From: Balanoglossus misakiensis
Taxonomy: Eukaryota; Animalia; Hemichordata
Assembly (NCBI GenBank): GCA_040954595.2
Contig: CM082576.2
Coordinates: forward strand, 10,047,129 to 10,111,128
Reading direction: 5' to 3'
Length of the DNA: 64,000 bases
Shown here: one piece after another, positions 38,101 to 64,000 of the stretch
How positions within the stretch are numbered: the first letter of the stretch is position 1
How the letters are laid out: every line of letters starts with the position of its first letter
The notes under the pieces: generated by a model
The model's input: the letters and a program-made list of their open reading frames with translations, nothing else
Database searches by the model: none
What the model was told of the DNA's origin: nothing
Position numbers and translations under genes: made by a program

Positions 38101-41100
38101 AAAAAATGTCAGCTTCTCACTTTTTTTCATACACAATCTGTGTTTCTGCACTAAAAACCTAAAGTTCTACAATCTTTCTGGTTAGTAGATTAAGAGTGTA
38201 TCCCAGTGCATGCTAAAAGTTTTATGTGTGATCATATCAATTAAGCCATATATGATACTTTAATATACAGATATTACATTTTGGTGGGTTGCGAGAGTAA
38301 TGTTTAAAGGCAGTTTCACTTAAATCTTAATTGGGCGTAACAGTTTAAACTCAACATTGAGACTTTGGTAACATGCTATGGACAGGTCATTGCCCTCATA
38401 TTCTGGGTAATCTTTACTTCACCTTACATGTAAGGTAGATATAGCTATGCTGTATGGCTTCATGTACGGTATAAACTGATAGTTTTATGCACGTTTTGGT
38501 AAAATACTGAGAATGATATATCACTTTCATATAATCCATCACTGCTTTCAAATGAAACATATCATGTCAACGGACATATGTTACCTGTACATGTCTGATG
38601 GTTTGGGTCACAGTAAACCATCTGTTAATATAAAAGAAATCTGTGTCCAGTCAATGGTCATGAAACCCTGAATCACCCTGTGCTCAAGTGGTCCCAACAT
38701 AGAAGACAGTATGTGCGCTATCTTTTCGGCACCATGCAAATAAGTATCTGTTGATTTTTGCCAGTCGATTCACAAAACGTGTTTCATTCTGTTTCATTCC
38801 AGGTTCCATCAGAGCCCCCGAAAGAAGAGCCCAAACCGACAGTTGAGGAGCAACCCGCCCCTCTTGCTGCAGATGAGGTGAAAGAGGAAGATGCGGCTGC
38901 AGCGCCAGTGGAGGAGGCAGCGAAGGAGGAGAAACCGGAGGAACCTGTTGCAGAGCCCCCCAAAGAGGTGAAGTCTCATTTATGACAACCAACAATTGTA
39001 TCGGTTCAGAAGTAAAATTAACTAATTTTTCGCAAGACACAAATAACTTTACCATATGACAGCCTTGCATATCAACTGACATTGGTGAAGATCTACCACG
39101 CTTCCATTCCATGGGAATCAGACACTTTTTTCTCTGGGGTGGCAGTTACAGTGTTATCGTTCGCCATGGCTATTAAATGATTTGAACCATCGTCATTTCT
39201 GTTCAATATAAAATGAAGGGAGCAGTCCTGTAAAAAGGGGTGCAGTGCCATAAACTCTGCAATATGTTTCCAAGATATACGACCACATATGCAGAAAATA
39301 ACTTCTCAAACAAGGTCAGCGAGAGACTTGGAGACCAAATGCGTATATGCTGACTCACATTCCTTTATGACTAGACGTAGAACATTTGATATGTTTCAAA
39401 AGGCTTACCCTGATGCAACCTCTCACTTGTGAACTTTTTACAGTGACATAAAAATGTTTTATGCTGTATTTGAAGATGACTTGCTCAATATAAGACATAC
39501 ACGCTATCCCAAGTTGTACCGTGAAATGCACAATGACTTCTGTGCAGGAAATAAATTTAAGTACAATGTATCTGTGATATTTTTATAATTAAAATATATC
39601 CCTCTAAAATATTCAATAGAATCTATAAAATAGGCACTAAACTTTCAACACAATCTAAACTTCAATCTGTAATTTTTTTGTAGGACTATTTTTGTGTTTT
39701 AGATACCACTTTCACTGAATGAATTTTTAAAATCTTTTTTGATTGACAGCCTGAAAAAGAACCTGAAGCAAAAGAAGAGCCTGCCCCTGCCGCTGCTCCA
39801 GCCGCAGTAGCTGTAGCAGCTGCAGTTGCTGCAGCAGTAGTTGCTGAGGAGACCCCAAAAGCAGAGGAGCCTGAAGCAGCAAAGGTTGAAGAAGCGGCAC
39901 CTGCTGAACCGGAGAAGGAAGTAGAGCCAGCGGCTGCGGTGGAAGAGAAAGCAGCCGAAGAACCGGCTGTGCAGGAAGAAACACCGGCAGAAGAGCAACC
40001 GGCCGAGGAGGAGGTCAAGCCGGCCGAGGAAGCGCCGCAGCCTGAGGTGCAGAAAGCCGAAGATGAAGTCGTCGAGGCAGCACCTGCAGTTGCGGAGGAG
40101 GAAAAGCCGGCCGAGGAAGCGCCGCAGCCTGAGGTGCAGAAAGCCGAAGATGAAGTCGTCGAGGCAGCACCTGCAGCTGCGGAGGAGGAAAAGCCGGCCG
40201 AGGAAGAGAAGCCTGCAGAAGAGGCGGCCGCCCCCACCGAGGTTGTCACGGAAAAGCAAGATGAAGAACCGGCAGAAGAAGTCAAGGAAGCCCCCGTAGA
40301 GGAGGCGAAAACAGAGGAACCCGAGCAAGAAGCGGCCCCAGCCGCCGCTGCGGAAGAACCCACCCCGGAAGTCGAAGCCACTCCAGAGGCACCGGTCGCC
40401 GTGGAGACTCAGGGAGAGAAAGTGGAAGCCGAAACGACGGAAGAGAAACCAGCCGTGGCAGAAGAGGCACCCGCAGAGGCAGAAACGGCGGCGCCAGTTG
40501 AGGCCGCGCCAGTAGAACAGGCAGAGGCAGCCGAAACAGAAGCAGAAGCGCCTGCAGAGGCAGAAAAACCAGCAGAACCAGAACCAGAGCCACAAGCAGA
40601 GGCCGCCGTTGTCGAACCCGTGCTGGAACAGAAAGAAGAAGCGGCCGCAGAGTCGGCACCGACGGAGTCCGGACCGACAGAGGAAGCGGAGGCAACCGTG
40701 GCAGAACCGGAAACAGCAGCGGAAACGCCGGCCGAGGTGCAACCGGAGCAGAAGGAGGAGGAAGAAGCAGTAGCAGAGTCGGCACCATCAGAAGAGGCGC
40801 CACCAGCAGAAGCGGTCGTTGAAGCACCAGAACCAGAAGCTCCGGCTGAACAGAAGGAAGAATCGACGGAGGCCGCCCCGGCTGAGGAGGAGGAGCCCAA
40901 ACAGACGGAAGAACCCGCAGCAGAACAGAAAGAGGAGGCAGCAGTGGAGTCTGCTCCCGTCGAAGAGGCCCCGGCTGCAGCAGAACCGGAAGCACCTTCG
41001 GAAGAAGCAGCGCCAGAGCCAACAGAGCAGCAAGAAGCCCCGGCAGCAGAACCCGAGAAAACAGAACAAGCTGAAGTTGCAGCGACAGAACCGGAGACGG

Positions 41101-44100
41101 AAGAACAGCCGGAAGGTCCAGCGGCGGCCGAGCCAGAGCAAACAGAGCAACCGGCAGCAGAAGCCACCGAGACAACAGAAACTCCAGCAGCAGAACCGGA
41201 ACAACAACCGGAAGCGCCCGCGGAGACACCAGCTGAACCAGAAAGCAAAGCTGAAGATTCTGCCCCTTCTGAAGAGGGGAAAATTCCAGTCGTCTTCTCA
41301 TGGTCTCATGGCGGCAAAGAAGTGTCAGTAGCGGGAACTTTCAGCGACTGGCAACAAGTTCCTTTGACAGAGAAGTAAGTCACAGTTACCAACACCATTG
41401 TCATATTTCTACATATGCAAGCAAACATGATACTTTTCTTTATGCATTCAAATTATGAGCACTTCCAATCCCATATTTTATGAGAAAATAGTGAATCCAC
41501 TGATAAAAATAAAGTGTGATTTCATATCCCACCACTGTTCATCAACTCCTTTGTGTATAACCAGGTAAAATCTATGTGCACTGTGTTCTTCAAGCATGTA
41601 TCTAATGTAATAGCTTTCTTGAGTGGTTGATGAGAAATTGAGCAACAGCTAGTCCCAAGACTAACAGATATATGTGTTGCATGCAATGGGCAGAACTCAC
41701 ATTCATAATCAGCTGCTACTATATACTGACTAAACTAAAAGGCAGCTGCTAAAATATCCTTGGATGAAGTTATTATAACGATAAGTTTTTCTTGTGATGA
41801 ATTTAGATCATGAAATCAGAATTCATTGGGTCTGTGCAGGCCTGCCTGTCAAATGTGTAAACCTCTGAAACACCGAAAACAAGCACAATTTTTTTGGCTT
41901 CAATCTTTTGAACTGTTCTGGAATGTGTAAAGTGTGGTTTTACATTGACCAGGTAGCCAGATTTTAAAATAAAAGCACTTATAATCTTTATATGAAAAAA
42001 CTGTAAAAATAATGTAATGTTGTGTCAGAGTTCTACACTAACATGAGCATGGCTATATTTAATGCATGTTATTCTCAAAATGTTATATCTGCTGTCACTG
42101 TCATTGTGTTTTTTTTCTGTTTTCTCTGTTTCTGATCAATTTCACCCGGCAACAAATAACTTCATTGGAATGGCCTAAAAAAATTTCACCCATGCGTCTG
42201 AGCAGCAATGGCAGTTTTACGTCAAGGCTAGAGCTTGATGAGGGCAAATATCAGTTCAAGTATGTGGTTGATGGCCAGTGGGTTATCGACGAGAGCCAGG
42301 TAAAATCATGCTTTTTTCTAGGAGAGGGAGTTTTCCCATCTTGCTGTGTGTGTAGGGGCTGTGAACACTTCATAGATTGTGACTCCTGTCTGTTGAGATT
42401 GTGAAATTTTGTTCCTCTCATAATTATTACCAGTGTTCATGATAAATTTTATCTTATATCACTTTGGACACCGGAATTGCTATAAAAGCAATTAAAATAT
42501 AATTGAAAGTGGAAACATTCTTCAAGCTTTCTCTGCGTTCTTCAGTATCTGCGAGTCACTTCTGAGCAGTTCACAGTTTCTATACCCAGAGTATTTTTCA
42601 TTGTCTGTGTGATGTTTAACGACCATGCAAATGTTGTGTTCCCATTGATTGATGCATACAGTGACGGTGAATTCAGTGTAAGTCTTGAGTTAACCGAGGG
42701 CCAGCACCAGTTTAATTTTATGGTGGATGGTGAACAAAAGCTCAGTTCTGCATACAAGGTAAATGACAACCTCAAGTAATACATACGTTCAGATAACGTT
42801 TGATTTCTTCGTGTTCACACACCAAGTGCCAACTGGCCACCTACATTATACAGTCACCATGACGACATTCACACACTTTGCGTTTACAGCTGGGAGCAAA
42901 GAAGAGTGACTAATAATCAAGTAAAGAATTTTGCATTCTGTCAACACGTTATCAAACATGATAAAATGTGTTGGTGAAATTGCATGTAGAATTTGATATG
43001 ACCGCCACAAACTGCCTTTGAAATACGAGGAAGGCTTTTCGAAAATATATGTCAACACGTAATATGTGGGGGTCATGACTTAATTTTGTATGCATGTCAG
43101 AGTGATCATTGTGGTGACAAATACAGCATGGGTCAACTTTGTAAAAAAAATTCCAGCTAATGAAAGATACACTAAAAAGTGATAAAAGTGGTTGATTAAT
43201 ATACTAACCTATAAAAAAAACTTCAATTTTATCAAAAGGAATTGATATATAAAATGGACAAATACAATGTACAACTAATAAAACAACCCAAAATACATCA
43301 CTTGCATATTAAACATTTATGTTCTTCATGTAGCATGTTCCCACGAATACATCTCAGTGGGGAAAAATGCCCTGATAACAAAAGCAAAACTCAGGATTGT
43401 CTGTGGATGGCGAATAGCTGGCAGCTGGAATAAATGATTCAAAATTCCTTGCATGTGTCATGCCCATCTGTCTGCAATAAAATCCCTGTCATCTATTATT
43501 ACTTTATTGTGACACAAGTGATTGGGTTAGTACAACAAGGCTCAAAATAATACTGTTACTGCTGTCCCCAATCAGTCTATATGAAAAAAGGAATGATTTT
43601 TCATTGAACAAAAAAAGGAATGATTTTCCATAGAATACAATGTATGGAAATGGTATGTTTAAAAGTGCTGGCAATTTTTTTAAAAAACTCAACCGTGCAA
43701 TACTTTCCAGAGTATGCCCCCCCCCCCCCTAAATTAGTCCACTCCAAACTTTCTTCCATGGGAACCACATCAAGACCGGAGTAGGGACCCTCTGCTGTTT
43801 GAGACTCTCAATTTCTGTTATGTTTAATAGCTGGCCACCATTTGACACAGTTCTCTGTGCCGCTCAGGACCACCACTTGGCACACCGGGAGCTCCATGTA
43901 GTTCTCACCAAGCCAGACTGAAAACAAGGGCATGATGTACATGCACAAGCAGAGCAAAACATAAATGCCGGCCAATACCCAAATTACTGTCTGATCACAG
44001 TCCACATTATGTGTGCTCCGGTTGTTCAAAATAATTGGCATGGGGATGGGCGATGTTTGACCTGACCTGCTTTTCTGATGTCTTGCCTGACCTAAAAATA

Positions 44101-44807
44101 CTAACTTGAAGATTGGAAATCTGATGACCAATTAACACATGGGCTTACACATTGCAATGTTTTGTAATAAATAAAAACGGGTATCATTAATTTATGCAAA
44201 ACCAGTGAATTATAATGTGTTTTTAATATAAGCAATTTACAATTTGTTGAAGTAACCTCCCTTAATCTTATTGATCAGTTGGGGAAGAGCGTCAGGAAAT
44301 GAGTCCCTGAAGTAAAAAAAAAAACACTGCAAATTTAAAGGGGAGGCTCAGTGCGGCTGATGTGCTAGCTTTGGGTTCAGTTATTCAGAAAAGGGCCTTT
44401 TTCACCATCTCTACCAGACAAAAGCAGTGGCGCAGGTTGCATTCTAGGGCTTCATCAACTTTGGATCTTGGGGAAAAGGCACACAAGCTTGATGCCTCGG
44501 TCACATTAGATATCTGGGACCATCTTGCAATGAATATGAGCATCACTGATTACTATGGTCCCGCATTGTTTATACTCGCATCCTGGCAAGAACGTGGGTG
44601 AGTTAACAATTCCATGGCAAAAATAGCTTTTCCTGAATAACTGAACCCAAAGCTAGCACATAATAATAAAAAAAATAGCCAGACTGAACTTCCCCTTTAA
44701 ATACACGTGATTGCGTTATTAAGTTATCTCCGTGTGTTATCTTTCCTCAGGAAACCGTTGGTACAGACATGGGCCCAAACAACATCGTTGAAGTGAAGAG
44801 GTCCTAA
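16233..44807 (+). CDS. Predicted N-myristoylated, Glu/Ala/Pro-rich disordered protein with C-terminal AMPK-beta-type CBM48 glycogen-binding domain
   Basis: Exons 16233-16763 (MGGLFSRKK.., K/E-rich), 38803-38967, 39750-41374, either 42206-42299 or 42662-42758, and 44751-44807. Phases are compatible (0,0,2,0). C-terminus PVVFSWSHGGKEVSVAGTFSDWQQVPL..LELDEGKYQFKYVVDGQW..GPNNIVEVKRS*. Joining exon 1 across the 22-kb intron is inferred from phase and composition. Confidence 0.78.
25748..26000. repeat. Degenerate minisatellite built on GAATCAC / TATATTCTACAGAATCACCAGAATCAC-like units
   Basis: Repeated gaatcac, aatcaccag and tatattct motifs at roughly 30-bp spacing. Confidence 0.5.
33407..33445. 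repeat. (GAT)n microsatellite
   Basis: About 11-13 copies, intronic. Confidence 0.9.
35015..35287. repeat. Long compound (GAT)n/(GGT)n microsatellite
   Basis: About 270 bp of GAT interspersed with GGT/GGA triplets, intronic, no splice sites. Confidence 0.95.
36566..36598 (+). promoter_or_regulatory. Candidate internal promoter (CCAAT + TATAAAA)
   Basis: CCAAT at 36566-36570 and TATAAAA at 36592-36598, about 190 bp upstream of the ATG at 36781. Confidence 0.4.
36781..36924 (+). CDS. Candidate alternative first coding exon of the CBM48 gene (short coiled coil)
   Basis: GAAATGG Kozak context. Encodes MEAQEDIVSVIGVLQRAIEDLASRVSRIEELLQGQKQTNVGTETTPET, then a phase-0 donor ACG|GTTAGA compatible with the exon at 38803. 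Confidence 0.65.
40017..40207 (+). repeat. 87-bp coding tandem duplication (29 aa KPAEEAPQPEVQKAEDEVVEAAPA(V/A)AEEE, ~2.2 copies)
   Basis: Units start at 40017, 40104 and 40191 and are almost identical at DNA level. Confidence 0.9.
42206..42299 (+). CDS. CBM48 mutually exclusive exon A
   Basis: CAG|C AAT GGC.. NGSFTSRLELDEGKYQFKYVVDGQWVIDESQ |GTAAAA; phase 2 in, phase 0 out. Confidence 0.8.
42662..42758 (+). CDS. CBM48 mutually exclusive exon B
   Basis: CAG|T GAC GGT.. DGEFSVSLELTEGQHQFNFMVDGEQKLSSAYK |GTAAAT; phase 2 in, phase 0 out; paralogous to exon A. Confidence 0.75.
44339..44696. mobile_element. ~358-bp non-autonomous DNA transposon (Kolobok-like MITE)
   Basis: TTAA|AGGGGAGGCTCAGT...ACTGAACTTCCCCT|TTAA, plus a subterminal inverted repeat TGTGCTAGCTTTGGGTTCAGTTATTCAG / CTGAATAACTGAACCCAAAGCTAGCACA. 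AG..CT termini with TTAA flanks. Confidence 0.8.
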
Positions 44808-47800
44808 ACTCGTTGCAGCTGTTCCATTGGTGCTTTGTTGATGATATTCCACTTGAGGTCGCATATCGGTCCGCTGCGTTACATTTACGTTTACGTTGCG
44901 GTTTCGGTTGCGACATTGACTCTGACGAATCAAGCCACTGCATGCCCAGATTTGCTCCGCTCTAGGAGCGTGCCTTTTGTCATGTAGTCGAACGTAGATG
45001 TGTAGCGCTTTAGCCAAAGTATTTATAGCAAATAGAGTATCTTTTTAGTCCGAGCATTTCGTGAGATTCGTAGGTTTAGACAAATTTGATACATACCGGT
45101 AATGATGGTGCAACTGCTACGAGTTGTAATTTTCGATTTTTTTTTATTTTAACGGCTTTGATCTGGGCGGTATTTTTTCCCATTTTGACAAAAGCCATTT
45201 GGGACGTGTAATGTGTGTCCATACTGTGTGCCGTGGATGGACAGGGATGTTTCTCGGTGATCATGATTTGACAGGGAAGACTCGCCTGTTCAGCAGAATA
45301 ACAAAAAAGAAATAGTTTTTCATCTGCCATGTTTCTGAAGCTAACCATGCATCCAAATGAAACTAATTCCTATATTCAACTGTACAGACTGTAATTTTGT
45401 CGTTTTCCTGTCTCAGACTAGGCGCATTCTCACCATAATTGGGTTGGCGTACTGCAATAAATTCGACGGTGCAATGGTGAAAAATGACCAAAAGTAATAA
45501 AAAAAAATGGAAAAATTGGATGTACATTTTTCTAAAAGAAAATTGAGAAGGATTCATTTGAATGTCATGGGTGCTTGGTAACTGGCAGATAAAAATGTTG
45601 CATGGTTATTTGTGGAAAGTTTCTTTTATTTTTATCACAATGGCACATTCTATGTTCAGGGCCTCAACTTTTGCATTTAGAGGTAGTTGTTAAGGCACTC
45701 ATACGATACACTGGTACATTTTCACAAATGATTTCTGATGTGATTTTATATAATAATTTCTTGTGAGATTAGTAAATAAATGCAACAATTTCTGTCAAAA
45801 AGCAAGATAGAATCATGATAAATCTTGTAGATGTACTGGCTGTCTTCCCTCTAAACTAAAGTGGTTGGCCTCTGAATTGACTGGTCCCAGTTTAGCCACT
45901 TCCAAAGTAATGTCTTCAGCTTAAAGGTCCACTGGCTGTAACTTTTCAAGGGTTTTTGTTTTGGTCCTACTACCAGTACTAAGTTAATCTGCCCACCGTT
46001 GTGTTTGTCAACATGGCCTGTTGTGACAACCATGGTTGGCAAATGAAGTCAAATCCTTGCTCAACAATGGCAATGCTAATTGTTCTCAAGTAGGCTGTGT
46101 TGATAACAGATTTTTGCCAAGGAACGGCAGTAGGGTGATGCACAGAATAAAGGTTACAGCTAGTGGACCTCTGATGCGAAGTGTACGAGAACATGCATTC
46201 TCCCTATGGTTTAGCAGAAATCTCATAAAATGACCATGAAATTTATTCAGTAATCCAAGTCGTTAATGTTCTGCAATTCATTAATGAGTGGAACCACATT
46301 TTAGAGAAAACCCAGATCTGAGTGTGGCACTTTTATGTAGGAAAGAACCTGTAATAAAAGTTTCAACAGCAAATTTGCTTATTTCTTTATGTCTGTGCGA
46401 TTTTGCTTTAAATTTGTTCGAACTTCATTTGAAATTTTGAGTATGGTTTTCCATTCAACACAATTCATTGCGATTTCATGCATAAATATTTTGTTCTTTA
46501 AACGTTAAATTTCTTCTTAAAATACGTTTGATGTGGCCAGTTTATACATAGAACAAAAAATTCTGGGGGAAAAATTATTAAAAAAATAGAAACATCAGCA
46601 ATATTAATCCGACTAACGTTTGGAAAGATAGAGATGCTTTTCAAGATATGCGACCAGACTGACTAACATTATAGACTGAAAACAAGTTTGTTTTGCAATA
46701 AATCGCTTTAATCACTGTGGTAGACCAAAAATTTTGTACTCACTGAAAGATGGGTGAGTGCTTGTTGCTACACACCTGTACAACAAAAAACGTATAAGTA
46801 AATTATTTGACAAAGGTTTGTTGTAAGAAGCCATTTTGTAATACAACAGCCAGATAGTTGTGTTGTGCAGTATTGAGGGCGCTGTCTTAATCACTCTTTG
46901 CCTATGTTTGGTGGATATGTCATCACCGACATAGCTTAAAGAAAATGCATATAAAACTCACTGGGGCTTCAGTAGTACACAACTAAATCCTGTCAAAGTC
47001 GGACTGAGTATAGCTACTGATTTGAATAAAATTCTATAATCAGAATTAGCCTGATCGGTACTCTGCACGACTCAAACTGTTTTTTATGATTTCACTATGG
47101 TGCTAGACAATAATGTTTTATCAATCACGTATGCTAACAACTTATCTATTTAATATGTTTTTGTCTGAGATTTCTTTTATGTATCACATTTTTTTTGCTC
47201 AAGACCGGGGTTTACCTCTACCAATTATTACTACAGTACACCCTTTTCTATCAGAAAATATGCCTCTGTGCAATCAGCAATAAAATAGTTTTATCTGTGA
47301 TGATTTGTCGTGTGCCATCCTGTAAAAAAACATTCCTTTTTAAATAGGTTGTGTTTTAATTCAAAAATATTTTTTGTTGGGGGATGCGATGTGATTGTGT
47401 AAGACTTTTACTAGCTCATAAATTCAAAAAGTATAAACTTACAGTGTTTTAAATTAGTAGTTTGTTAGAATAGTATAGTTGTGTGAGGGAGCACAATTCT
47501 TTTAATTACATGAATAAATGTTATTAGTTGAGAGGTTAAGGAACCCAGAATCTACTGAAAGAACAATCTGTTGTCAGGTTATGATAATGTGTCAATCTGA
47601 GCATATTGCTCAGTTTTGGTCTCACTTCGCAGAATTAATTTGGATTTAAACAGATGTACAATTTGTACTTGGAAGAGTTTGATTGAATGACAAAAATCAG
47701 AGAAAAAAAGGAACCAATTTCATCAACTTTAACTCGTCTTCCTTGGATGTGCTTAACAAGCATGAGGACGTCCATGCCATTCAAAGATTGCAGAGGAGGG

Positions 47801-49457
47801 AAAAAAAACTTGCTGTAGCACTTGGATAAAATGATATCGCAGATGAAATGTACCAAAGATTGGTACACCAGATGTGCCAACAACACAGTTTTTAAAATAT
47901 GACAATATATTTTATACACACATTCAAAAACCTTTCAATTTTAATGTTAACAAAAGTAGGGTACAATACACACATTTACACTGTGTAAAGTCTGGCCAAC
48001 ATTTATTCAGGCTGCCTTGAAATAATTTACAGTGGTATGTTTTACTCGATGACATCAGAGAGTGATGGTGGTGCCTCCCCTCCATTAGTGGTTGTGAGTT
48101 TGACCACCAAGTGAGTAACAATACCAGGTCAAAGTTGACATTAAGTTCAGTCTGCTTGCAGTTTGGTTTGGCTGTAGAATGTGGTTCTCTGACACAGAAG
48201 GCATCATTTATCAGTCTTTTTGTTTTGTCTGTCACCACTGAAATACTAGCTCAGTGATGTCATGCAGTCTGGCCTCAGTGTATAAGGTTGGCACTTTTCG
48301 ACAGCACATCCCAATTAAAAGATTTATGTGCAGCGGGGCAAAGTACACAGTAGAAGTAGTCAATCTGTTTGATAGCTGTGAATCAAGACCAAGTGTAGTC
48401 CATTTTATTTCACAAAGCGTATCATATTCCAATAGTTTGCAGATCATGTAATCAGCGCCGGCCTCCTGAGTTCAGTATGAACCAATTGACAGTTTAGATG
48501 ACGCTTTTATACAACTCAAAACTGATGGAAAAGATTTATGTTTGCAGTTTGCAAATTGAATTTTATACACTAACAAACTAACTTATGCCATGGTATTCTT
48601 GACAATGATCTTGATCTATCATTTAATTGTTGAACACCAAGAGTCTTTCCTTCCAATGTGTTACAACTCAGATGAATTGCAAATCAATATGAGAGGCAGT
48701 AAAAAAAACTTAATTTCCATTGCCTTTTCTTTCAGTAGCAGTGTACCAAGGGTATTTAAGTATGATAATTTGCTAGCCAAGTATACTTTGCCTGCTGAGA
48801 GGTATAGAATAGAAATGTAATAATTATGATAATGATAGATAGCAAGCAGCTCGGATTTCACACTTATTACAGACATAATGAATAAAGCAGTTGTTGATGG
48901 AAAGTATTGCAAATTTGTCCGATATGTTTTATTTACCCATCCCGCCACCCCCATCAGCTTCAAAACTCACTGTGATTGGTGATGCTATTACTACTCAATA
49001 ATTTCTATTCTGATGAAAGAGAAATGTTGGCAAACAGTGATGTCATAATTTGACCCATTTTTGTGCAGAATGATATATTTGGATGCAATGGTGTAATGCG
49101 ATATGTTGTGTGTACTTTCCTATAGGAGATTCATCGGGGGTTACCAAGTGTGTACTACTGGATCTGGCCCAGTTGGTATTATGTCATCTTAGTACATATA
49201 GCAAAGAAACACTTGCAGTTCATGTGAATTGCTCAAAGCCAGAGCTGCCAAACTTGTACTTCTGATACCATTGTATCGTTGGTAATTGGTTGAATAAGCG
49301 GTTTCCATGGGTGATGCGAACAAGCCTCATAAAAACAGTTTTTGCATAGTTTTGTTGTGAATCTAGTAGTGTTGTGCAACTTCTGGTTTGAATTTATTGA
49401 CCCAATACTGCAGAATTGCCACAAAACAAATGTTAACTTGGCAAGTACATCACGAGT

Positions 49458-49577
49458 CACGTGATATAAACTTTTTCTGACATTGCGCCACCACGTGGCC
49501 ACATTCGGTCAAATGTTTACATTATTTACGCATGCGCATTCGAAGGGAAGTGTTTGGCGGGGAATTCGCAGGAAGTG
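49458..49577 (+). promoter_or_regulatory. POLA2 proximal promoter with E-box, NRF1-like, E2F-like and ETS-like sites
   Basis: CACGTG at 49458 and 49492; ACGCATGCGCA at 49528-49538; TTTGGCGG at 49553-49560; CAGGAAGTG at ~49569; locally CpG-rich, 55-175 bp upstream of the ATG. Confidence 0.6.
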
Positions 49578-49632: not shown

Positions 49633-52600
49633 ATGAGTACTGTGGTGACCCCCGAAGATCTTGCTGAAGATTTCTCGATGTTTGACATCGAATTAACGGA
49701 CCCTGAAACAGTCGAAAAATGTAAGTGTGGCGGTTGCGAGTTTCAAGTGTCCTGATCCAGCCTCCTCGGGTTTGTCTTGTCATTTGCCTTTCACTGATAC
49801 ATATATCTGATGTACATTTCATTTGCATAACCATAATTCTTGACTTTTATCAATAATCGTATTGTTGATTTGATTTGATTGACAGTTTTCTTATACAAAT
49901 GTACTTCATTATTTTACTTTATTTAATTGCCATCATAGTGCAAGAATTATGCACAATATTTCGACAAGACAGTTCTTCCCTGGTGGACGAATGGATTGCG
50001 TTTTCACAAACCCACAAAAAGGTATCACTCTCCATGGACTCTCTTGAACAGTTTGAGAGAGAGGTAAGTCACTCCCTGAAGAATTGCCAGGTTTATCACT
50101 TCTCTTATAGTCTGTCTTGCTGTTTACAGTCCATCACGTTTTAATTATTTGTTCAATCAAAACTTTTGTTTGAGTGTTGCCAGAAATATGCCATCATCTT
50201 TATGTCATGCACTTCCCCTTACAGAGATTTTTACCTGAAATGATGGATCCAATACCAATGAAAATGCCAGGGTGTAAATTAATAAAAATAGCAAAAGTTC
50301 AACCTGGAATGTTATACCCTATTCCATCATTTATTTTACCTGTACCTCTGATTGATAGACAACTCTGAACATGCTTTGTTTTTTCAGTGGATGAATAGGA
50401 AATCACAGAAAAGCAAGACACCACTCGTAAAGAGAGAGAAACAAAGAGTCTATGATGTCACTGCAGTTGGAGACATGTATCCTTTGGTTTACATCAGGAG
50501 TGATCTACAACAGCTAAGTTTTTGGGCGAGCGGAAATATACACAATGCTAGGAGGGGGAAATATACCATAGTTTTAGCCTGTCTGAATACTGCATTTCGT
50601 TGATTACATGTTCCCGGACTACTACATGTATGTACATTCCTTACATGATTTGTATTACACAGTATTGATGATGATGACAATGATGATCTCTTCAATGCGT
50701 ATTCTACACCTGCAGCAAAGGTAACATTTGTGATGAGGATTGAAGATCTTTGGATAGGGGGGGGGGATACTATGTATGTGAAGTGCAAAAGAAAGCACTA
50801 TTCTCATATCCATGGATTATGAATTTTGAATTTGTCTTTCATATGATATTTATGAGGGATCTCATCGTCTTTCGATATTCTCATGTGGACTTTTCCTAGG
50901 GTAAGAATAAAAGACTTCACACAACACCGGAAAATATATCCAATAAAAGAGTGACTTCTCTCGGGAAAAGTCCTTCCATTCCGTATTCACCAGGATCTTT
51001 GCCGTCACCAGTGTAAGTAAAACCTATGCTGCATGCACTGTTAAAATACAGAGCGACGAATAAAGATACATTTGACCAGTTCTGGTAATGTTACAAAATG
51101 TAGCGTTACAATATTGCTGTTGTTTTAACTTTGTAGTGTTTTCCAGACCAGCCATTCAACTAATTTATTACTGTATCAATACAGATGTTTTATAGTTGAA
51201 ACAACAAGCCCATACGAACTACTGTATGTGCATGATGAAAAATTTGATTTGCACTTGCATTTTCAGAGGCACTCCTTCCCAGAAATATTCAAGTCGTACA
51301 AACAGAGGAGAAGCTGTTGCGAAGTATGGAGACCAGACAGAAACCAAGTGGCATGGCAGTGGTCCACAAGGCTGTATGATAGAGCTGTACGACAAGGACA
51401 ATGCGATCACAGGCAACATCAACTACATGTTCCAGAAATGGACTGATAAAGCACATGGTAAGAAGAGTATTGTAATACACTGCTTGTCAGTTTTGCTGCA
51501 ACATGGTTGATGTAGAAGGAATCTAGTTACCGGTACATATACAGACCTCTGTATAAACTTGAAAACCTGAACATCTCTGTGTATGGTATACTTATCAGTA
51601 CTGACAAACATATTACTTTCACTTTCAGTTTTGAATGATATCATAGAAGACCTTGGTTGTGAATTGCAGAATTGTCATGTGATTGAAAACTTGTGCCATG
51701 TTGCCATCCCCATACAGGTAAGGAGTTAGGACCTAGGAAGCGGATAATCCTAATCAACTACTCTACCTCCTGTGTCAGTTTTTGAAAAATGCAAACCAAA
51801 CGAACCACATGCATGATTGACAATGGTGGCATCAATGTGTTGCTTTGAGTTTGGAGCAACTTCCTTCAGAAAAGATGCTGTGTACTTGATCCAGAATAAA
51901 CTGTCACACACTAAGGACTATGTGGGCCACATTTCTCCTAATTTCTCTTTGTCAATTCAACAGGAAAGCATGACAGTGGCTGGGCGCATCTGCTGCGACA
52001 GCAACGGCAAGATGAATTCCCAGTCGGTGATGCTGGAAGGATCGGTGGGAACGTCTCGTGGCAGGAGAGTCCCTCTACTCCTGAAAAACCTCAAGGAATA
52101 TTCCCTCTTCCCCGGTCAGATTGTCCTCATGGATGGTATCAACAGCACTGGAACAAAATTGGTGGTCAATAAAATGCATGAAGTAAGTTATTATGAGTCA
52201 GACAAATTTGTCGCTTCTTACGGTTTTTCCTATACATGTACATGTATGTGGGTCCAGCTAAGCGATCAGAAACATTGAGGTTAAGCCAAGATAATTTGAA
52301 AGCTAATAGGTTTAACACGCCACACATTGATTCTGCCTACTAACTCACACAGAGTAATATGTTGCCATTGAACAAGTTGTATACTTTTCTGTACAGGGTG
52401 TCATTTTGCCATTCAATGAGGGCGAGAGTGATGCCACCGGACCTACGTCAGTGCTGACTGCAGCTGGTCCGTACTTCACATCAGACAACCTCGGTTTTGA
52501 ACCTCTGAACGATCTCATACAAGTCATACAGAAAGAGAAGCCTGATGTCTGTATTCTGGTGAGTTCTGACAGATCTTTGCACGGTATGGAATATAGACTC

Positions 52601-54372: not shown

Positions 54373-55046
54373 CAATGGACCTGTCACATTTACCATGATG
54401 TAATGCTTGTGTGCATAAGTCATGGTGTTGATTCCTGGTCCTACAGAAATTCAAGTCACAATTCTGAACCAGGTGTTGTGGGCGGAAAATATTTTTCATG
54501 ATCAACTGGAAATTGTTTGATTTGTAAACCTTGAGATTATTATTGCGTCAGATGTTTCTACTTACCACTACATGTATATACAATATCTGTAGTAAATGTG
54601 CTCATTTAATAATATAAAAATATAATAAAGCCATACTGATCTTGCTATATCTGTGTACTAGATCAATTTGTGTGGTGTTTCTTTGTTCTCAAAGAGTATT
54701 CATTTCGGACCGCTTTGGTGTACGTAGTGAATCAACGTGGTGTTGTTTTAGACAGTCTTAGGTGGTTAATCTGCGCATGAACTTTATTTATACCGAGCTA
54801 GAAGGTCTGAATCTAGGACGCTATGTCGTCCCTACGTCTCCGGGGGCTAACGCCTCTGAGGACTTTTGCCTGTAATTGATATAACAGTGATTCAGTCTGA
54901 TTTACTTTTACGTGTAATAAAATTTAGTCAATGGTGTAAATACGTGTTAAGTTTAACATTATTCGTATCTATCCGAAAACGTGGTGTATTTTGTAACATA
55001 CGACTTCTCCTTGTGTGGCAACGTATGCGCCCCCGGGATATTCAAG

Positions 55047-58000
55047 ATGGACGACGCCAATCTGACAAAGCTACAAGTGTCTCCAGGCACTTTGTCGCCG
55101 AAATTTAACAAGGATGTCACTGAATACAGTATTACGGTTGCCAGCGATGTCGAGAAGGTTAATTTTAGCTGTATGACCAGTGACAGCGGTGCTTCCTACC
55201 AAATATTGGTGAGTCTTGTGTCAGGATGTCGTGAGCCACTCTGCAGAAAATGATCGATCGGTCAACCAGAGGTTACATTTTTTCGACTGTCGAGTGATTG
55301 TAATATTTAAACTGCAAGGCAAGCGCCAGGACTCTAGCCACATGCGCAGGTTTCACTGACTGTGACAGCAGCTTGATTCAAGCTGTTACATGTATCGCAG
55401 CCGATGACTGACTCTTGTCTGTACAAACAAATGATGACACTTTGAAGGTGGGCGGGGCTAATAATTTTCCAAGTCGTCAATGTTCTTGGGGAAACTGCCA
55501 TAACACTACAGTGGGATGACCAACGTCATCATCTTTTCAGGGAAGTGGTGGCAGTAAGAGCATCGCAGTCAAATCAGGTGATGTCACCGTTATTAAGATA
55601 GAAGTAACATCAGAGGATGGTACAACAAAACTTTACCAAGTGAATGCCAAGAGGTTATCGGCAAAAGATGCGTCGTTGACTTCACTACAGTTGTCTGTGG
55701 GAGTGTTAGAACCAGAGTTTGCAATTGACACTTTGAGTTATGCATGTAAGTACACATAATAAAATTATGGTTAATTAGCCCATAATAAATGTAGTTTTAT
55801 AATTCTTACTAATATAACTTTATGCCCATATTAAAAAGACAACAAAAAAGAGCCATTCCTCCATTCATCTTTCTTATATCAGGTGTTGTACCATTTTATG
55901 CAAGTTCTGTCACTGTGAAAGCTGTGGCTCCTGATAAGAAGAATGTTGTCAAAGTGTGCGGAGGCGATCCTTCTGCAGCGATTTCACTGAATGTTGGAGA
56001 GACCCCCATTGAAATTGCAGTGACATCAGCAGATGGATCCAATACAGGGGTATGTGTGTTCATGATAGAGACATGTTTCCACAATACAATACAATACAGT
56101 GTATAATATACATTTCAGTGAAATATTAAAAGAAAACCTAACAAACCACTTCTTTGATCCACAATTTCCTCCTACACACAGGTCTACAAAGTAGCAGTGA
56201 CAAGGAAGCAACTGACAAGAGCTGTACGGTTTGTAGACAATCAGAAAGCTGCAAAGTATGAGTGTCCAATCTGTCTTGGACCGTTCTACTGTCCGATCAG
56301 TATCAAGGGATCCGAACCAAAGCATGTGTTCTGTGCACCTTGCATCAGTGAGTTGACCAGAACCTCCAAGTTTGACCCTCTTGATGAGACACCCCTTGAG
56401 TTGGAATGGAAGGTTCCTGAGAGTGGTCTGGACAAGGAGATGTCATCGGCTATGGTGCATAGTTTGTATGCATATGCAGGTGAGCAGTGGATATGTGGAA
56501 TCTGTGATTGCATATCAAATCATGAGATACACATGTAGAAGAGTGTTTGACAGTATTATGCTCACACAAAATCAATACAAGTTGCTCGAAATTGTACTTC
56601 TTGTATTTAGTGGGTTACTATATGAAGAAAAAAGTCTCATTTTGCAAAAGCTAATTTTGTGCATGTTTCTCGGTGAAAACAGTTTGCTCTGATTGAACTG
56701 TTGTAAGTGTATCTTTTGTGGACATGGCCTTTTTATTAGTTGATGTCTTTTTCAAATGTGAAATGTATGTGAATGAAAACACTGATGTATGCAAATTCTT
56801 GTATTCACAGGAGCTGAAGAAAAAGTCAAGTATGGTGAGTTAGGAACTCATGCCAAAGAAAGCAGTCACAAACCGAAGCTAGATAAAGAGGTAAGGGTTT
56901 GTACAGTTAATTGTGCCATTGTAGTATAGAATCAAACATCACTGAGTGAAGCAGTGTCGTCATTGCTCAACAAGTGTTGTTTTGTTTAGTAATGACACAT
57001 GACTCCACATATTCGTGATTTTTTATCTTAATTCTAAAGTCACCAGTTTTGAAGTTGTATGCCTGACATAATGAGTCTTCTCTATAACATGGCTGTATGT
57101 TTGTCCCACAGGAAAATGGCGAGTCGTGCGGTGACTGCAGCAGGAAAATACCCAAGGGAGAAATGGAGTGGCACAAAGCCAAACTCTGCACAGCGAAGCA
57201 CACCAACAGAGATACAAAACATTCAGCTCAGGTAGAACATTATATAGAAAAGACATTAAATGTATTTCTTTTGTATTCTTTGGACAATCACTGGAGCTTT
57301 GTCATTTGGGTCAGTTTTTCTTCCCAAGAGAAAGCTGACTATATGCATGTGTAATTTATTTTAAAGGTCAGAGGTTGGGAGAAGAAGATGCAGCAAGTAC
57401 TTGGCGAAAGCAGTGTGGATAAACTGGTGAAAAATGCACAAGATCTTCTCAAGAAGTACAAGCAAAACCTACCAACACACGGCAAGTAGTGAACTCATTG
57501 TAGTACTCACTGTAAAACTGCTATCCTTCAACTGTTGTTTATATTTTGGCAAAGTTTATGAGCAACATTAACTACACAATGAAAAAAATACCAGACTCAT
57601 AGACTGTTCTGAACCTTGAAATTTTCATGCCAAAAGTTTGTAATCTTTGTGGTCATCCGCTGTTTACTCTGTGTCGTACAGGTAGGGCCGGTTCCCACGA
57701 GGAAGGTCAGTCACCTCTAGATTTCCTGACCACTGCATCACACAACTTGGCCAGTGCCATCAAAATCAAGGGTAAAGATGGAGAGTTACACTATCAGCTG
57801 GGTTTGGTTCTGGAAGAGCAATACTATGCGGCTGATATGTATGGATTGAAGAAGGAGAAAGATGTAAGTGGGGGAGGGTTGGAGGGAGTTGTGAGGGAGG
57901 GAGGGAGGGGGTGGGTGAAGGAGGGACAGACAGACAGAATGAAGACAGAGAGAGAGAGAAAAACAACCAGATCCTCATTGCTGTGAATTATAACACATGC

Positions 58001-61000
58001 AGATTGAAATCAATGTGACACCTTTTGGATTTCAATTCTTCAGGACATGGAAGACAGCTTTGCTGCCCTCAACGTCGGCTCCAAACACGAGACCACCGAA
58101 GAGGAAGACATCCGAGCATTGTGTCAGCAGAGGGGGGTAGGCGCTAATGCCCCTCTATCAAGGATTTTACAAGCTATTGATGAGGAACTCAGGTACCTGA
58201 AGGATTCGGGGCAATCTGCAAAGGCTGATTATGTCCAAACACTGTACATGCTGAAATCCAAAGAGGCGACACAGGTAAAAGTCATTTTGTAAATCAAATA
58301 CATCGGCCTGAAATAAACGTGCACACTTCAGCCAAAATATAAATACATGTATATAAATTTCATGAACATTTACTTGTTAGTTTTACAGTGCATTTTTGCA
58401 AGAATAAAACTTACTATACAAATGTATCCATGTTTATAAATTATAAATTGCTCTTTCTGGTGTCTGTACAGTACAGACTGGTGTATTTTCTATCAACAAC
58501 TTCTCTTGCTAACGTTACAGGGCGGCAAGACTGCACAGGCAGCATCCAGCGAGGAGACATCACTAGGCCAAGCTCATCTGAAATTCATGGATGCCGTGTC
58601 AGTTAGTCAGAACAACGCCGTGTACAACCTGCATGCTGGGAGACTTCTGTTGCTGCAAGGCAAAGTGGAAGACGCTCTGCAACGTCTTGAAGTGGCTGTT
58701 GGGTTGAAGCCGTGCCTTCCAATTGCAAGGTGATGTGTGGTGTGGTGTCCTTCATTGAAAATGACTGATCGTAAACGCATATTACTATCAATTGAATTTG
58801 AATATCTTACTGTATCTTGGCAGTGTTGAACTGGGAAGCCCTGAAGTCGGCATTTCATTGATTGTCACAATTATGATGTTTATTCCTCAAATAAATGACA
58901 TAAAATTCAAATTCATATTCAAATGGAGCAGTGAATCTTATTTCTATTAAATGTAAACATGATTTGATTTATAAATGTGTTTTGAAGGGTAATGTAGAAA
59001 TACATGGTAACTGCTTACTCACGGTGGCCATTCTCTGTTTCTGTAGATTTTACCTGGGATTGGCGATAGCAAGTCAGCCGAACGGTGCTGGCAGTAGAAC
59101 CAAGGAAGCAATCACTTATCTACATGATGGAGTGGAGTACATGCTGGAACAGTGTACGGTGGCTGCCAATGCTGACAAAGATAAGAAGTAAGAATGGCAG
59201 CCATTTTTTTGAAAATAAAAAATTGTGTCAACACCCCCCTCACAAATGAGAATCCAAAAATCGGCAATTAAAAGAATGATTGTACATGTACTTTCAACTG
59301 TAGCAATCATACATCATACATAATTACAGCGATACCAATCATTCTAACACTGACTGTTTTGCCTTATTAGAGATAGCCCATCCCTACATTCAGAAGATGT
59401 ATGGCGTAGCTCCAATGTTCAGCTGCTCAGGGGTCTCGTAGAGTGTGGGAAGCTTCTGAGTAAGTCGCCGCAAGAAAAATGTCTGACGCCTGAAGAGATG
59501 TTCCACAGGTAAGTGAGATAATTTGGAATGTGGAAATCATCCATTAGTTATTCAGTATTAAAACTACAGCCAGTTAATCAAGCAGAGAGAGATAGGTTGT
59601 CTCTGTTTTAATGTTTTTTTTTTTTATTGGACATACATGTATTGCATCTGAATTTAATTCCATTCCCATCCCTACAGTGCCGCCAAGATAGCGGCCCACA
59701 ACATCTGTACACTGGTGTCTCGTGGTGATATCTACCAATCTATGGAGTGGGTCCTCTTAGACAGCCACTCTTCGTTGTTGGAGCTGATGCTGGCCAAGAA
59801 GGCAGATCCTGGCCAGATAGCAGAGAGATGCCAGCGACTCTCGGCTCTCATCAAATCATCCACCGTACCCCAGAGTGTACAGATCTTACAACTACAACAG
59901 AAGGTAATGTGTGTGTGATGTCAGTAGATTTTAATGTTGTCTAGGTTTATTCTGTGGTGTCTATTCTGACCTGCTTTACTTGTGTGTACTGGAATGAAAG
60001 TGTGTGTGAAAATGATTAAAAAATACTAGTTGCTTGAAGTACACTGTAAGGCGCAGTAAAAGTTTATTCAAGTTACAGGGCTGTAGGCTTAATCACCAGC
60101 CCATTCTGCTGTTGTGTCATCAGGCACTGACAATTCTTAAATGAAGCCAACCTTTTTAGCAATTATTTCCTTTTCTGCACAGACCTGCGAGACAGGAGTG
60201 ATTATCCAGCCATGTAACAGTCGCAGTCTGTATCTACTGGGCAATGCACAGCTGGCCATGCATGAGAACGAACCCACCTCAGAGAAGGGCAAGAAAGCTT
60301 TGGAAGACGCCCAGTTGTCATTTAGAGCCAGCATTGAATTGGAAGGGAAGCCTGGTGCGGGAGATCCACCTCCACAGTTAGCCAGTAAGTAATCACTAGC
60401 ACTGCTTTTAAGTTCCTTTTTTGTGATTGTACATGCATTTTACAGATTTGGTCCTCGCTTCTGTCCTTTTGTACACAACCTTTTGGATAGGTAAAATGCT
60501 TACCCGGTTTCTTGGCATTTAAAGGGCAGATTAAATAAAGTGCCATAGATATGTCCAAATATAAACAAACATGGAGCTCATCTTATACTTATGGAAATTT
60601 GAATTGACCCCACCTTCAGAACAGCAATGGTGGGTCGACAGAATCAAGAAAGAAGAGGAAGAAAAAAAAGCAGCGGAGGAGAAAGCTAAAGCAGCACAGG
60701 CACCTGCCAAGGGAACTGCACCAGCAAGGGGCGGCGCTGCAGCCAGAGGCGGTCCTGCTGCCAGGGGTGGCGCTGCGGCAAGGGGTACGTGTTTACACTG
60801 TCATTTTTTCCTTCTATTATTAGAATGTAATTTGATTTTGTGAAAGTCACTGCATTTGTACTAGCCTCCTAAATTTCAACAGGATGAGTTTTTGCAATCT
60901 CAGCGGCTACGGCAAATGAACTACAGTGTACATGTATGTAACTGATTTCTCTGCTACCCCATTTTCAGGTGGTCGTGGTGGTGCTGCGGCTGGCCGCGGT

Positions 61001-62847
61001 GCCCCCGCAGCGAGGGGAGGTGCAGCTCGTGGTGGTGCTGCCAGGGGAGGTGCTGCCGCAAAGGGTGCACCTGCAGCAAGGGGAGGTGCAGCACGAGGTG
61101 GCGCTGCAGCAGCGAAACCAGCTGCAGGAAAAGCTGCAGTGCCCGCAAAGCAACCTGCAGCAGCCCCACCAAAGGCGGATGCGAAATCACCAGGTGAGTG
61201 TTAACCTGCAGCTGTGTGTAGCAGTTATGGCAAAACACATAATGTGTTGAGTTGTCACTGTTTTGTTAACGTGGCCATCTTGATGCCATAGTTATGTTGA
61301 CACCAGGAGAATGGCAGTTATTTTTCGTGCAAGTTAACCAAGTAAATCCACTTTGTCAGTTTCCATGAATCCTGCAACTTTCAATGATTTTTCAACAACT
61401 ACATTATGTACAAATTAAATGTAAAATTAGTTTTGATCATTAATAATGTTTTTTTTTTCAAATCACTAAAGAAAAATAGTTGAGTATGTGCCATCTTACA
61501 TTCTGACAAACTTCGTGTTGTTGCAGAACCCCCGAAGGAGGAAGCAAAACCAAAAGCAGAAAGCAAACCAGTGCCAGCCAATGTACCATTGAACAAAATG
61601 AGTCATCTGGCCAGATTGGGACTGGCTAGGGTTCTGGTGAAGGACCCCAGCAGTGCCGAGGAGGGTCACATGCTTTATCAGGACGTGATTACAATGGCGC
61701 CTGGGGTAGGTGGAGATATGCAGGGTCTGTTGAAACATTCTGAAATCGTGTGTATTGCTTGATGGTCAGTTATCTGGTTGTTATAGGACTATTCACGCTC
61801 TCTTGGGATTTCTGATGTAATGCATGAATATACTGATGAAAATTTGTGGTGTATTAAGTCATCAAGATATTCCCATGTTATGCTATGGTCGGATTTTGAG
61901 TAGGGCTTGAACTACTGTAGTGCAAAGTTCTGTAAGTAGAGCAGTGCAAGTGATTTTGCAATGAAATTTTAAAAATCTTGGTAGTGCTAAAACGGTTGTG
62001 AATTTGCCCCCTTTAAAGTTAACATGTTGGAGAAATTCTCACTGCATAATGATCTGACCACATCTCTGTTAGGTGCACGATGCTTACATCGAACTGGGTG
62101 AATTGTTGGTGAAGACGGACCCTCTCAAGGCCGTGGATGTCTACGCCAAGTTTCCCTTCCCGGAGGGAGAGCCTTCCTTCGACGACGCCTACATCCACGG
62201 CGAGATTGTGCGGCTGCTGATGAAGAAGGAACAGTTCGATGACCCCAGACTGGAGAAGTACATGATTGCCTGGGGGAGAGTCATGGGTATCGGTGAGTTG
62301 GGGCAGGCTGCTTCTACACCTGTCACTGCCACAGTTTGGTGTGATCCCGTTGTTTTCACTGTGCATGGATCAATCCATTGACAGAGATATGAGGGTGGAA
62401 GGGGCTACGAATGAGATGGAATCTTTAAAAAGAACGTGAATGCACTGCATGTTATGATACTGTTCAGAAGTGACAATACTGATTATGAACTATCACATGT
62501 AGTATTCTATAACTTTTCATGGAATTAATGCAATACAGCAAGATTGTTTCATATGATTGCCCAAAAATTGAAACCAGTTCAAGTAAGAATTCAACAGTTT
62601 ATATGAAATTAAGGTTTGTTTACTCAATTGGAAATATGAACACAGTTGGGCCATATCGCAGTGCACCAGTCTGTGAATCTTATATCTTGCTGTCTTTTTT
62701 CCATCAGGTGCTCTTGAGAAGTATGTTGACATTCTGGATTCCAAGTTCAAGAGCAAGCTACTGATGAATGTCTATGCCGGGGTCAACAACAAAAGCCGTG
62801 ATGATTCAGACATGCAGGCCTTCTTCAAATTTAAGATGTGGTTATGA
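55047..62847 (+). CDS. Uncharacterised multidomain protein: 2x cadherin-like beta-sandwich (PF12733-type), degenerate RING, TRAF-type zinc fingers, TPR-like helices, RGG repeats
   Basis: Exons ~55047-55208, 55541-55745, 55883-56049, 56182-56479, 56811-56890, 57112-57231, 57367-57481, 57682-57863, 58044-58274, 58521-58729, 59047-59187, 59371-59508, 59678-59903, 60183-60384, 60620-60784, 60969-61193, 61527-61705, 62073-62292, 62708-62847, in phase through to TGA. Motifs DANL..L..LSPKF....EYSITV / IEVTSEDGTTKLYQV (twice), CPIC..HVFCAPC, CGDC..H..C, YQLGLVLE, YLLGNAQL. Confidence 0.85.
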
Positions 62848-64000
62848 AGTGACCATGTCTTCGCTCTGAAGAGAGCGTCTTGAATCTGTCGTTAACAGCA
62901 GAAATTGTGTGTTTATAACTAAGAATATTAACATGTGCAGATATGAGTGTGCTGTAGGGACGTACCATGTCCAGATTAGAGTGAGGTGTGAAGATTATTG
63001 GTCCATGACAGTCTCGTCTCTCCCTAGAGATTGATGTAGCCATGCCGAGATCGCAGAGTAGCGCGTAACTGAGATCAAGAAATGGTTATGCTGTCTATTA
63101 CCGATAAATATGCAGGTGTGGGGTGATTGCAGAGCCACATTCAAACTTTTTCTTGATCTGCACGAGTGGACATAAACATGCTAATGTGTGGCTGAAATTC
63201 ATCAGTGGGGGTCACTTTTGCAGAAGTATGCAAATACTAACTGATGAATTATTCAGGCTGTAGTTGAAAGGGGCGCGTGTTCTATGCATGCATGCGTAGG
63301 TAAAGAAGCAACATAATACAGATTTCTGTACTGCATGTTCTTGACAAGATGTACACAGGCTCCAGACGTACACAGGCCCTCATGGATGAAAAAATGACCA
63401 CTCGAACTAATGCTGCTCACAGATCCTGATATTGTAGCATAGTGGACATCTCATTTCTGACAAAAATAGAGATGTATGTACATGACATTACACATGTCAA
63501 CAAATGCTAGGCAAATGGCTGCAATTTCTGGAACTGCTTACAAACTTTCAAATTTCAAAATTGTGCGCCTCTGAAAGCCTCAAACTATGCAAATTATTTA
63601 CTATTAATTATTGTCAAGGAACATAACCTATACAATTTCTGATAAGAATTGATTGATGACCTCTGGTAAAGTATTCTTGTTTTCAATTTTCCGTCCAATT
63701 GACTTAGTGTGGTTGAAAATTGTTTCCGTTCAATAATTTAATGTAGAGGAATAACTTTCGATGAGATACACAAATGAAGCAAAAGTTTCTGAACATTCCA
63801 ATGAACTCAAGCAAGAACAAGTGATGTAGATTTCTATTTTAATACATTTAACATTGCTCAAGTTTTACTGAATACAGTTATTTTGTGTGTGCTCTCTCAG
63901 TTCTGACTAAAAATGTTGAATCATCCACGACTATACCGCCTCATAAACTTAAAGATAAACCACAAAAAGGCCTTTGATTGATGCCTGTGTGCAAGTATTA

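Follow-up and report, generated by a model that had tools for sequence, protein, structure and literature searches.

A plus-strand gene in a 64,000-nucleotide stretch of the hemichordate Balanoglossus misakiensis (GenBank assembly GCA_040954595.2, contig CM082576.2, positions 10,047,129 to 10,111,128 of the forward strand; hereafter the window, in whose own numbering all positions are given) encodes at its 3' end a carbohydrate-binding module (CBM) of family CBM48, the middle of which is specified by two adjacent homologous exons, A and B. These exons appear to be an old tandem duplicate and are likely spliced one-or-other, and we lean slightly towards a reading in which splicing toggles the predicted protein between a glycogen-binding form A and a weakly binding or non-binding form B. 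The coding exons of this host gene are the following.

16233-16763, plus strand: likely first coding exon, 177 aa, ending in phase 0, with a donor that beats 25 of 30 local donors
39750-41374, plus strand: large shared exon, 1625 nt, encoding a Glu/Ala/Pro-rich linker and then the first third of the CBM48, ending in phase 2
42206-42299, plus strand: exon A, 94 nt, AG/GT ends, phase 2 in and phase 0 out, open frame
42662-42758, plus strand: exon B, duplicate of A, 97 nt, AG/GT ends, phase 2 in and phase 0 out, open frame
44751-44807, plus strand: last coding exon, 18 aa including the equivalent of Asn150 (N150) of AMPK beta1, with the stop codon at 44805-44807

With regard to the exon pair, the coordinates, 94- and 97-nt lengths, AG/GT ends, phases and peptides given in the original prediction were all recovered. 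Either exon alone connects the upstream exon (end 41374) in frame to the last exon (start 44751). Inclusion of both breaks the frame, as had been claimed, with TGA read as the first codon of B, 94 nt upstream of the last junction; a by-eye, unscored inspection for other splice sites giving an in-frame A+B product showed only poor or domain-breaking ones. Skipping of both exons (41374>44751) shifts the frame, and the stop then falls within the last exon, so that this possible third, domain-less form, without most of the CBM, would escape nonsense-mediated decay (NMD). The same CBM48 segment had been assigned to both exons, and indeed the Pfam AMPK1_CBM profile (cut-off 26.8 bits) is matched by A at positions 34-62 (31.6 bits) and by B at positions 34-61 (27.7 bits), the large shared exon scoring 28.0 bits. 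A and B are 39% identical, adjacent, similar in length and equal in phase, and are separated by an intron of 362 nt. Since neither flanking exon occurs a second time in the window, only the middle exon has been duplicated, and a tandem second CBM domain is ruled out. No homology between the introns flanking the two copies was detected.

We infer that exon 16233-16763 joins exon 39750-41374 across 23 kb from the fit of their phases and from the absence of a strong intervening exon in a search that covered phase 0-0 exons. The predicted protein would be 768 or 769 residues long, with Glu making up 27%, Ala 20% and Pro 11% and with a net charge of about -142; the CBM is at its C-terminal end, preceded by about 680 acidic residues. 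It starts with Met-Gly and has Ser at position 6, which we take to be a predicted N-myristoylation pattern. Residues 1-32 (window 16233-16352) match positions 1-33 of the BASP1/NAP-22 family (PF05466; E 0.02, the sole Pfam match), and the acidic Glu/Ala/Pro body is a further likeness; the match stays below the cut-off of 25 bits, with 15.6 bits for residues 1-40 and 10.3 bits for residues 1-177. The BASP1 profile gave no match to a 186-aa query at E 1, and no PDB match was found for the first-exon region. The BASP1-type anchor may reflect convergence or a distant link. To our knowledge, BASP1 carries no CBM. The layout of membrane anchor, linker and glycogen module presumably recalls that of STBD1, which combines a transmembrane anchor with a CBM20, whereas the host protein has predicted myristoylation and a CBM48.

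For the shared exon, A and B, the top PDB matches are AMPK-beta CBM48 domains (Pfam PF16561; PDB 1Z0M, 1Z0N, 4YEF, 4Y0G). The host protein resembles AMPK beta in its Met-Gly start and in the W100, K126, W133 and N150 equivalents of form A. Unlike AMPK beta, it ends with the CBM, carries the long acidic region before it, has an altered T148 loop and a duplicated middle exon, and lacks the ASC domain: none of 74 plus-strand frames of at least 30 aa in 41375-49500 matched ASC (AMPKBI) at E 0.1. As no ASC domain follows the CBM, the predicted host gene product is not an AMPK beta subunit. The intron phases 0, 2, 0 and the 94-nt middle exon are presumably like those of vertebrate PRKAB1, a likeness for which a literature look-up gave no confirmation.

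Residues were numbered after full-length human AMPK beta1 (4zhx_B), in which positions 111-138 align with residues 3-30 of exon A, the whole exon covering 109-139. This alignment makes the Lys of exon A K126 and its Trp W133, in agreement with the residue numbers of the original prediction, which had also placed Trp100 in the shared exon and Asn and Gln in B. The corresponding codons are as follows.

41349-41351, plus strand: W100 equivalent, within the large shared exon
42258-42260, exon A: K126 equivalent
42279-42281, exon A: W133 equivalent; D136 is also kept in this exon
42714-42716, exon B: N126
42735-42737, exon B: Q133; this exon also has M128 and S136 and is one codon longer than A

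Form A possesses equivalents of W100, K126, W133, D136, G147 and N150, that of N150 being placed by an NN motif and by spacing; the last exon alone gave no PDB match. In form B, N126 and Q133 replace K126 and W133, and the W100 and N150 equivalents are retained. The expectation that these changes hit residues that matter agrees with published mutants of AMPK beta1: K126Q abolished glycogen binding and W133L partially disrupted it (as reported in PMC6274970), while Ala or Gly at W100, K126, W133 (W133A among them), L146 or T148 markedly reduced it (PMC2642990). Lacking both the K126 and the W133 equivalents, form B is expected to show weak binding or none. That it binds alpha-glucan much less than A seems to us highly probable, and form A itself probably binds alpha-glucan.

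Several points count against so simple a contrast, and most of them concern the last exon, which is common to both forms. It reads Gly-Pro-Asn where beta1 has G147-T148-x-N150, so that the T148 contact is missing in both forms, a point overlooked in the original prediction, and this altered loop leaves binding by form A unproven; mutation of T148 in beta1 lowered binding (PMC2642990). The spacing from position 133 to N150 is 16 residues in form A versus 17 in beta1, and a Gly two residues before the Asn occurs in 17 of 199 modules, compared with 124 of 199 for a Gly three residues before it. Further, AKINbeta2, without K126 and N150, still bound starch (PMC4032982). An unlikely alternative is that the exon pair is real and neither form binds glycogen well, or that B is mainly a poison exon setting dosage. 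The loss of T148 and the shortened loop in the shared exon would suit poor binding by both forms, but A keeps all six of the equivalents listed above.

A different specificity of B has also to be considered: B would be used, though not as a simple off state, its remodelled strand and loop giving another glycan preference or a protein-binding surface. The retention of W100 and N150 is in line with this, as are codons 25-32, which are wholly unlike A, the additional codon, which restores the beta1 spacing of 17 to N150, the starch binding of AKINbeta2 (PMC4032982) and the merely partial loss caused by W133L (PMC6274970). We nevertheless consider it improbable, given that K126 and W133 are both gone, that the three positions on either side of 133 offer no aromatic residue, and that K126Q alone abolished binding in beta1 (PMC6274970).

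The loss of both residues has precedents in the family. A search of a protein library with a profile of A and B returned 377 matches at E 0.001, the best 150 being all multi-module proteins, and 349 distinct modules were collected from 137 of these 150, 260 of them counted as canonical. It weakens the comparison that this set was gathered with the A+B profile itself, is mostly microbial and consists of modules that are not independent. K126 together with a Trp at 133-135 is found in 298 modules, both are absent from 17, and 24 and 10 lack one of them; the odds ratio for joint loss of K126 and Trp133 is 21 across the 349. A canonical module is also present in 11 of the 13 proteins having a double-loss module. 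At the level of these sequences, double loss is a recurring natural state, mostly beside a canonical module. In an Epulonipiscium protein with some 17 CBM48-like modules in tandem, Trp133 is absent from all of them, and one has Asn126/Met128 as in exon B.

The comparison of the two exons bears on whether B is a living exon. Over codons 1-24, pS is 0.88 (synonymous sites are saturated) and pN 0.30, and different codons are used for 7 of the 12 identical residues. When neutral decay of A was simulated (six distances, 20,000 runs for each), an open frame with 12 identities and 7 synonymous changes arose in at most 0.14% of runs. Scored against the 260 canonical modules over the same codons without position 126, A reaches 37.4 bits and B 33.8 bits, a value attained by 5% of neutral copies at distance 0.1, 0.3% at 0.2, 0.04% at 0.3 and none from 0.5. 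These results support protein-level constraint on B, and its use in mRNA is, in our estimation, very likely.

The picture is less favourable towards the end of the exon and outside this genome. Codons 25-31 of B share none of seven residues with A, as against 12 of 24 in codons 1-24 (p 0.026), and most codons of the 3' part differ from A by two to three bases. B lacks D136, which is kept in 92% of the 260 canonical modules; its ending equals a family variant in just 1 of the 349 modules, which rules out a known variant as its source. The whole-domain score is 48.2 bits with B versus 65.8 with A, and a recent loss of B function may be compatible with the pair comparison. Word-based protein searches with the end of the shared exon, A and B found no match, a weak result for 40-residue queries. 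None of 23 proteins inspected among the best 150 of the 377 matches was like the host gene, and a metagenome scan of 32 loci found matching splice boundaries in none of the 30 with a located module. In a protein cluster atlas, the domain gave generic CBM48 clusters only and the first exon none.

One may thus ask whether B, long functional, is now relaxed or dead, the losses of K126 and W133 being decay and A alone being used. The searches for orthologues without a find, the absence of the family features W133 and D136 from the 3' third and a weak acceptor speak for decay. Against it, the changes are not scattered: codons 1-24 are family-like, and frame, phase and donor are intact. The acceptor of A is weaker still than that of B, and B is flanked by a predicted 17-bp helix and a second predicted partner of the RNA element X described below. 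On balance, a dead copy has a low probability, and we retain B as an exon very likely in use.

The splice sites of the pair were judged by a model built on 30 introns, taken from two neighbouring genes whose joined frames are open. The donor of B scores above 17 and that of A above 9 of these 30 local introns; both acceptors are weak (A above none, B above one), in contrast to those of the shared exons on either side, which are strong (above 22 and 25). Weak A and B acceptors between strong shared ones are the pattern of regulated alternative exons. Candidate branch points of B lie at -46, -17 and -13. Exon A is preceded by an unusual 3' splice region.

42038-42205, plus strand: extended 3' splice region of exon A, with a 160-nt AG-free zone, a weak NAGNAG acceptor and a pyrimidine tract at about 42100-42135
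42038, 42059 and 42132, plus strand: candidate distant branch points of exon A

The AG-free zone is longer than in all 30 local introns (longest 101). As for the means of exclusion, U2/U12 incompatibility was ruled out, none of the three donors having what we take to be the U12 pattern, and so was plain steric exclusion, given the 362-nt intron and the position of the B branch-point candidates. Transcripts with A+B would be cleared by NMD, since their stop is 94 nt upstream of the last junction, and NMD is on paper a sufficient backstop; among human clusters of such exons, 60% have lengths not divisible by three (PMC5740500). In other respects, a long, MITE-like inverted repeat (44333-44702), with one arm of 26 nt and one of 43 nt that are complementary at 85-88%, ends 48 nt before the acceptor of the last exon.

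The introns around B contain three elements predicted to pair, all within 520 nt.

42342-42369, plus strand: element X, predicted docking element, intronic, 43-70 nt past exon A
42569-42593, plus strand: element Y, upstream of B; the predicted helix with X closes the A-B intron into one stem
42811-42854, plus strand: element Z, downstream of B; it is predicted to pair with X in split form, and this X:Z pairing would loop out B

The X:Y helix comprises 17 contiguous bp (42350-42366 with 42569-42585), four of them G-U, at -32.5 kcal/mol, and the split X:Z pairing reaches -34.7 kcal/mol. Among 3192 windows of the 64 kb, the best two partners of X are Z and Y; conversely, X is the top partner of Y and of the 3' half of Z among 3191 windows, whole Z ranking it seventh. 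In controls of the same geometry (363 from the plus and 314 from the minus strand), two such helices on one 30-mer occurred once in 677, and, after 62 controls with GC of at least 45% had been dropped, none of the 615 with GC below 45% was as strong (best -29.1 kcal/mol). The A-B intron fold has a z of -2.67, and two of six region pairs tested, both involving X, beat all 40 shuffles. According to the mechanism we propose, pairing of X with Z would loop out B and yield form A, and pairing of X with Y would collapse the A-B intron, expose B and yield form B. The X:Y helix would also place the donor of A at an effective distance of about 55-70 nt from the likely branch point of B, borderline with respect to a steric threshold of about 50-60. 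Whether X, Y and Z steer the choice is, in our judgement, evenly balanced.

The case for such steering meets several objections. Four of the six region pairs were at chance; they concerned base pairing between the downstream intron and exon A or its acceptor, as well as docking upstream in the manner of Dscam, and both ideas were discarded. The downstream window of the controls was narrowed after Z had been seen. At equilibrium X:Y is favoured by 8-11 kcal/mol and the probability of X:Z is about 0, so that X:Z would depend on kinetic effects or on a protein. The candidates upstream of A whose pairing with X would loop out A come no higher than places 71 and 113 of 3192, close to chance. In ATE1, a helix inside the intron acts as a repressor of the second exon, opposite in sign to what we propose (PMC7797038), and predicted conserved pairings in fly Rdl were reported as non-functional (PMC13762713). 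No Rfam match was found in 41300-49500. The poison-exon version of the alternative raised above would draw on the immediate TGA of A+B, 94 nt from the last junction, and on the favoured X:Y helix, which draws the donor of A towards the acceptor of B; but a poison exon could do without an open, CBM-like frame, and B is constrained in the very phase used when it replaces A.

Known systems resemble parts of this arrangement. ATE1 exons 7a/7b (PMC7797038) and docking-selector clusters (PMC6071210) likewise have one inter-exon element with two competing partners, and looping out of B by X:Z would be like the downstream docking described for such clusters (PMC6071210). In ATE1, R1 and R4 sit immediately before their respective exons, extend over splice sites and are similar to one another (PMC7797038), whereas the two strong partners of X are found on either side of the second exon, off the splice sites and with no detectable similarity, and are predicted pairings only. 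In the RNA-control systems compared, a layout with both partners flanking the second exon is not described. With regard to the exons themselves, OGDH 4a/4b arose by an ancient duplication and exclude each other; a ligand motif is present in one of the two and missing from the other, and the pair, described as an on/off switch, also has a long AG-free zone and distant branch points (PMC7969005). The ligand there is Ca2+, exclusivity stems from a distance of 25-41 nt between branch points and the donor upstream, and it is the second exon that has the AG-free zone before it (PMC7969005), the first exon (A) having it here. In invertebrates, non-chordate deuterostomes among them, the alternative pore exons of NALCN exchange residues of key function, the site being an ion selectivity filter and the swap having been shown in transcripts of many species (PMC3557258).

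The original prediction had known of no described example. This holds for CBM48, for which a literature search, lying mostly outside subscription journals, found no case with mutually exclusive exons, but not for the class, since either-or exons switching a ligand site are already known from OGDH 4a/4b (PMC7969005) and NALCN; the CBM48 case is apparently new. On the favoured reading, the protein would be a glycogen-to-membrane tether with splicing as its switch. In its widest form, the proposal is that of a new invertebrate protein combining an AMPK-beta CBM, in truncated form, with a myristoylated anchor resembling BASP1, and having a two-exon glycogen-tethering switch, a three-element competing RNA with both partners flanking the second exon, and the non-binding form as thermodynamic default. 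This combination as a whole is rather doubtful. If the splicing switch is real, it would offer a natural on/off pair of one glycogen-binding module differing in a 31-residue segment only, and with it a clean test of the contacts needed by a CBM48. It would also add an animal protein, so far undescribed, through which splicing could control the anchoring of glycogen to membranes, and the compact X, Y and Z would make exon choice driven by RNA structure easily testable in a little-studied animal group.

Among the other genes of the window, two plus-strand introns, 5411-5697 in a PARP1-like gene and 50477-50662 in a POLA2-like gene, both begin with GTATCCTT, which we take to be a U12-type donor; the animal thus likely keeps the minor spliceosome. 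An intron-split gene on the minus strand (14300-14963) matches the DNA alkylation repair enzyme family PF08713 (E 1e-11 and 2e-7), a mostly bacterial family, and stands head to head with the CBM48 host gene. On the plus strand, a gene at 54957-63000 has matches to a cadherin-like beta-sandwich and to a RING finger; helical repeats and a stretch rich in Gly, Ala and Arg come after them.

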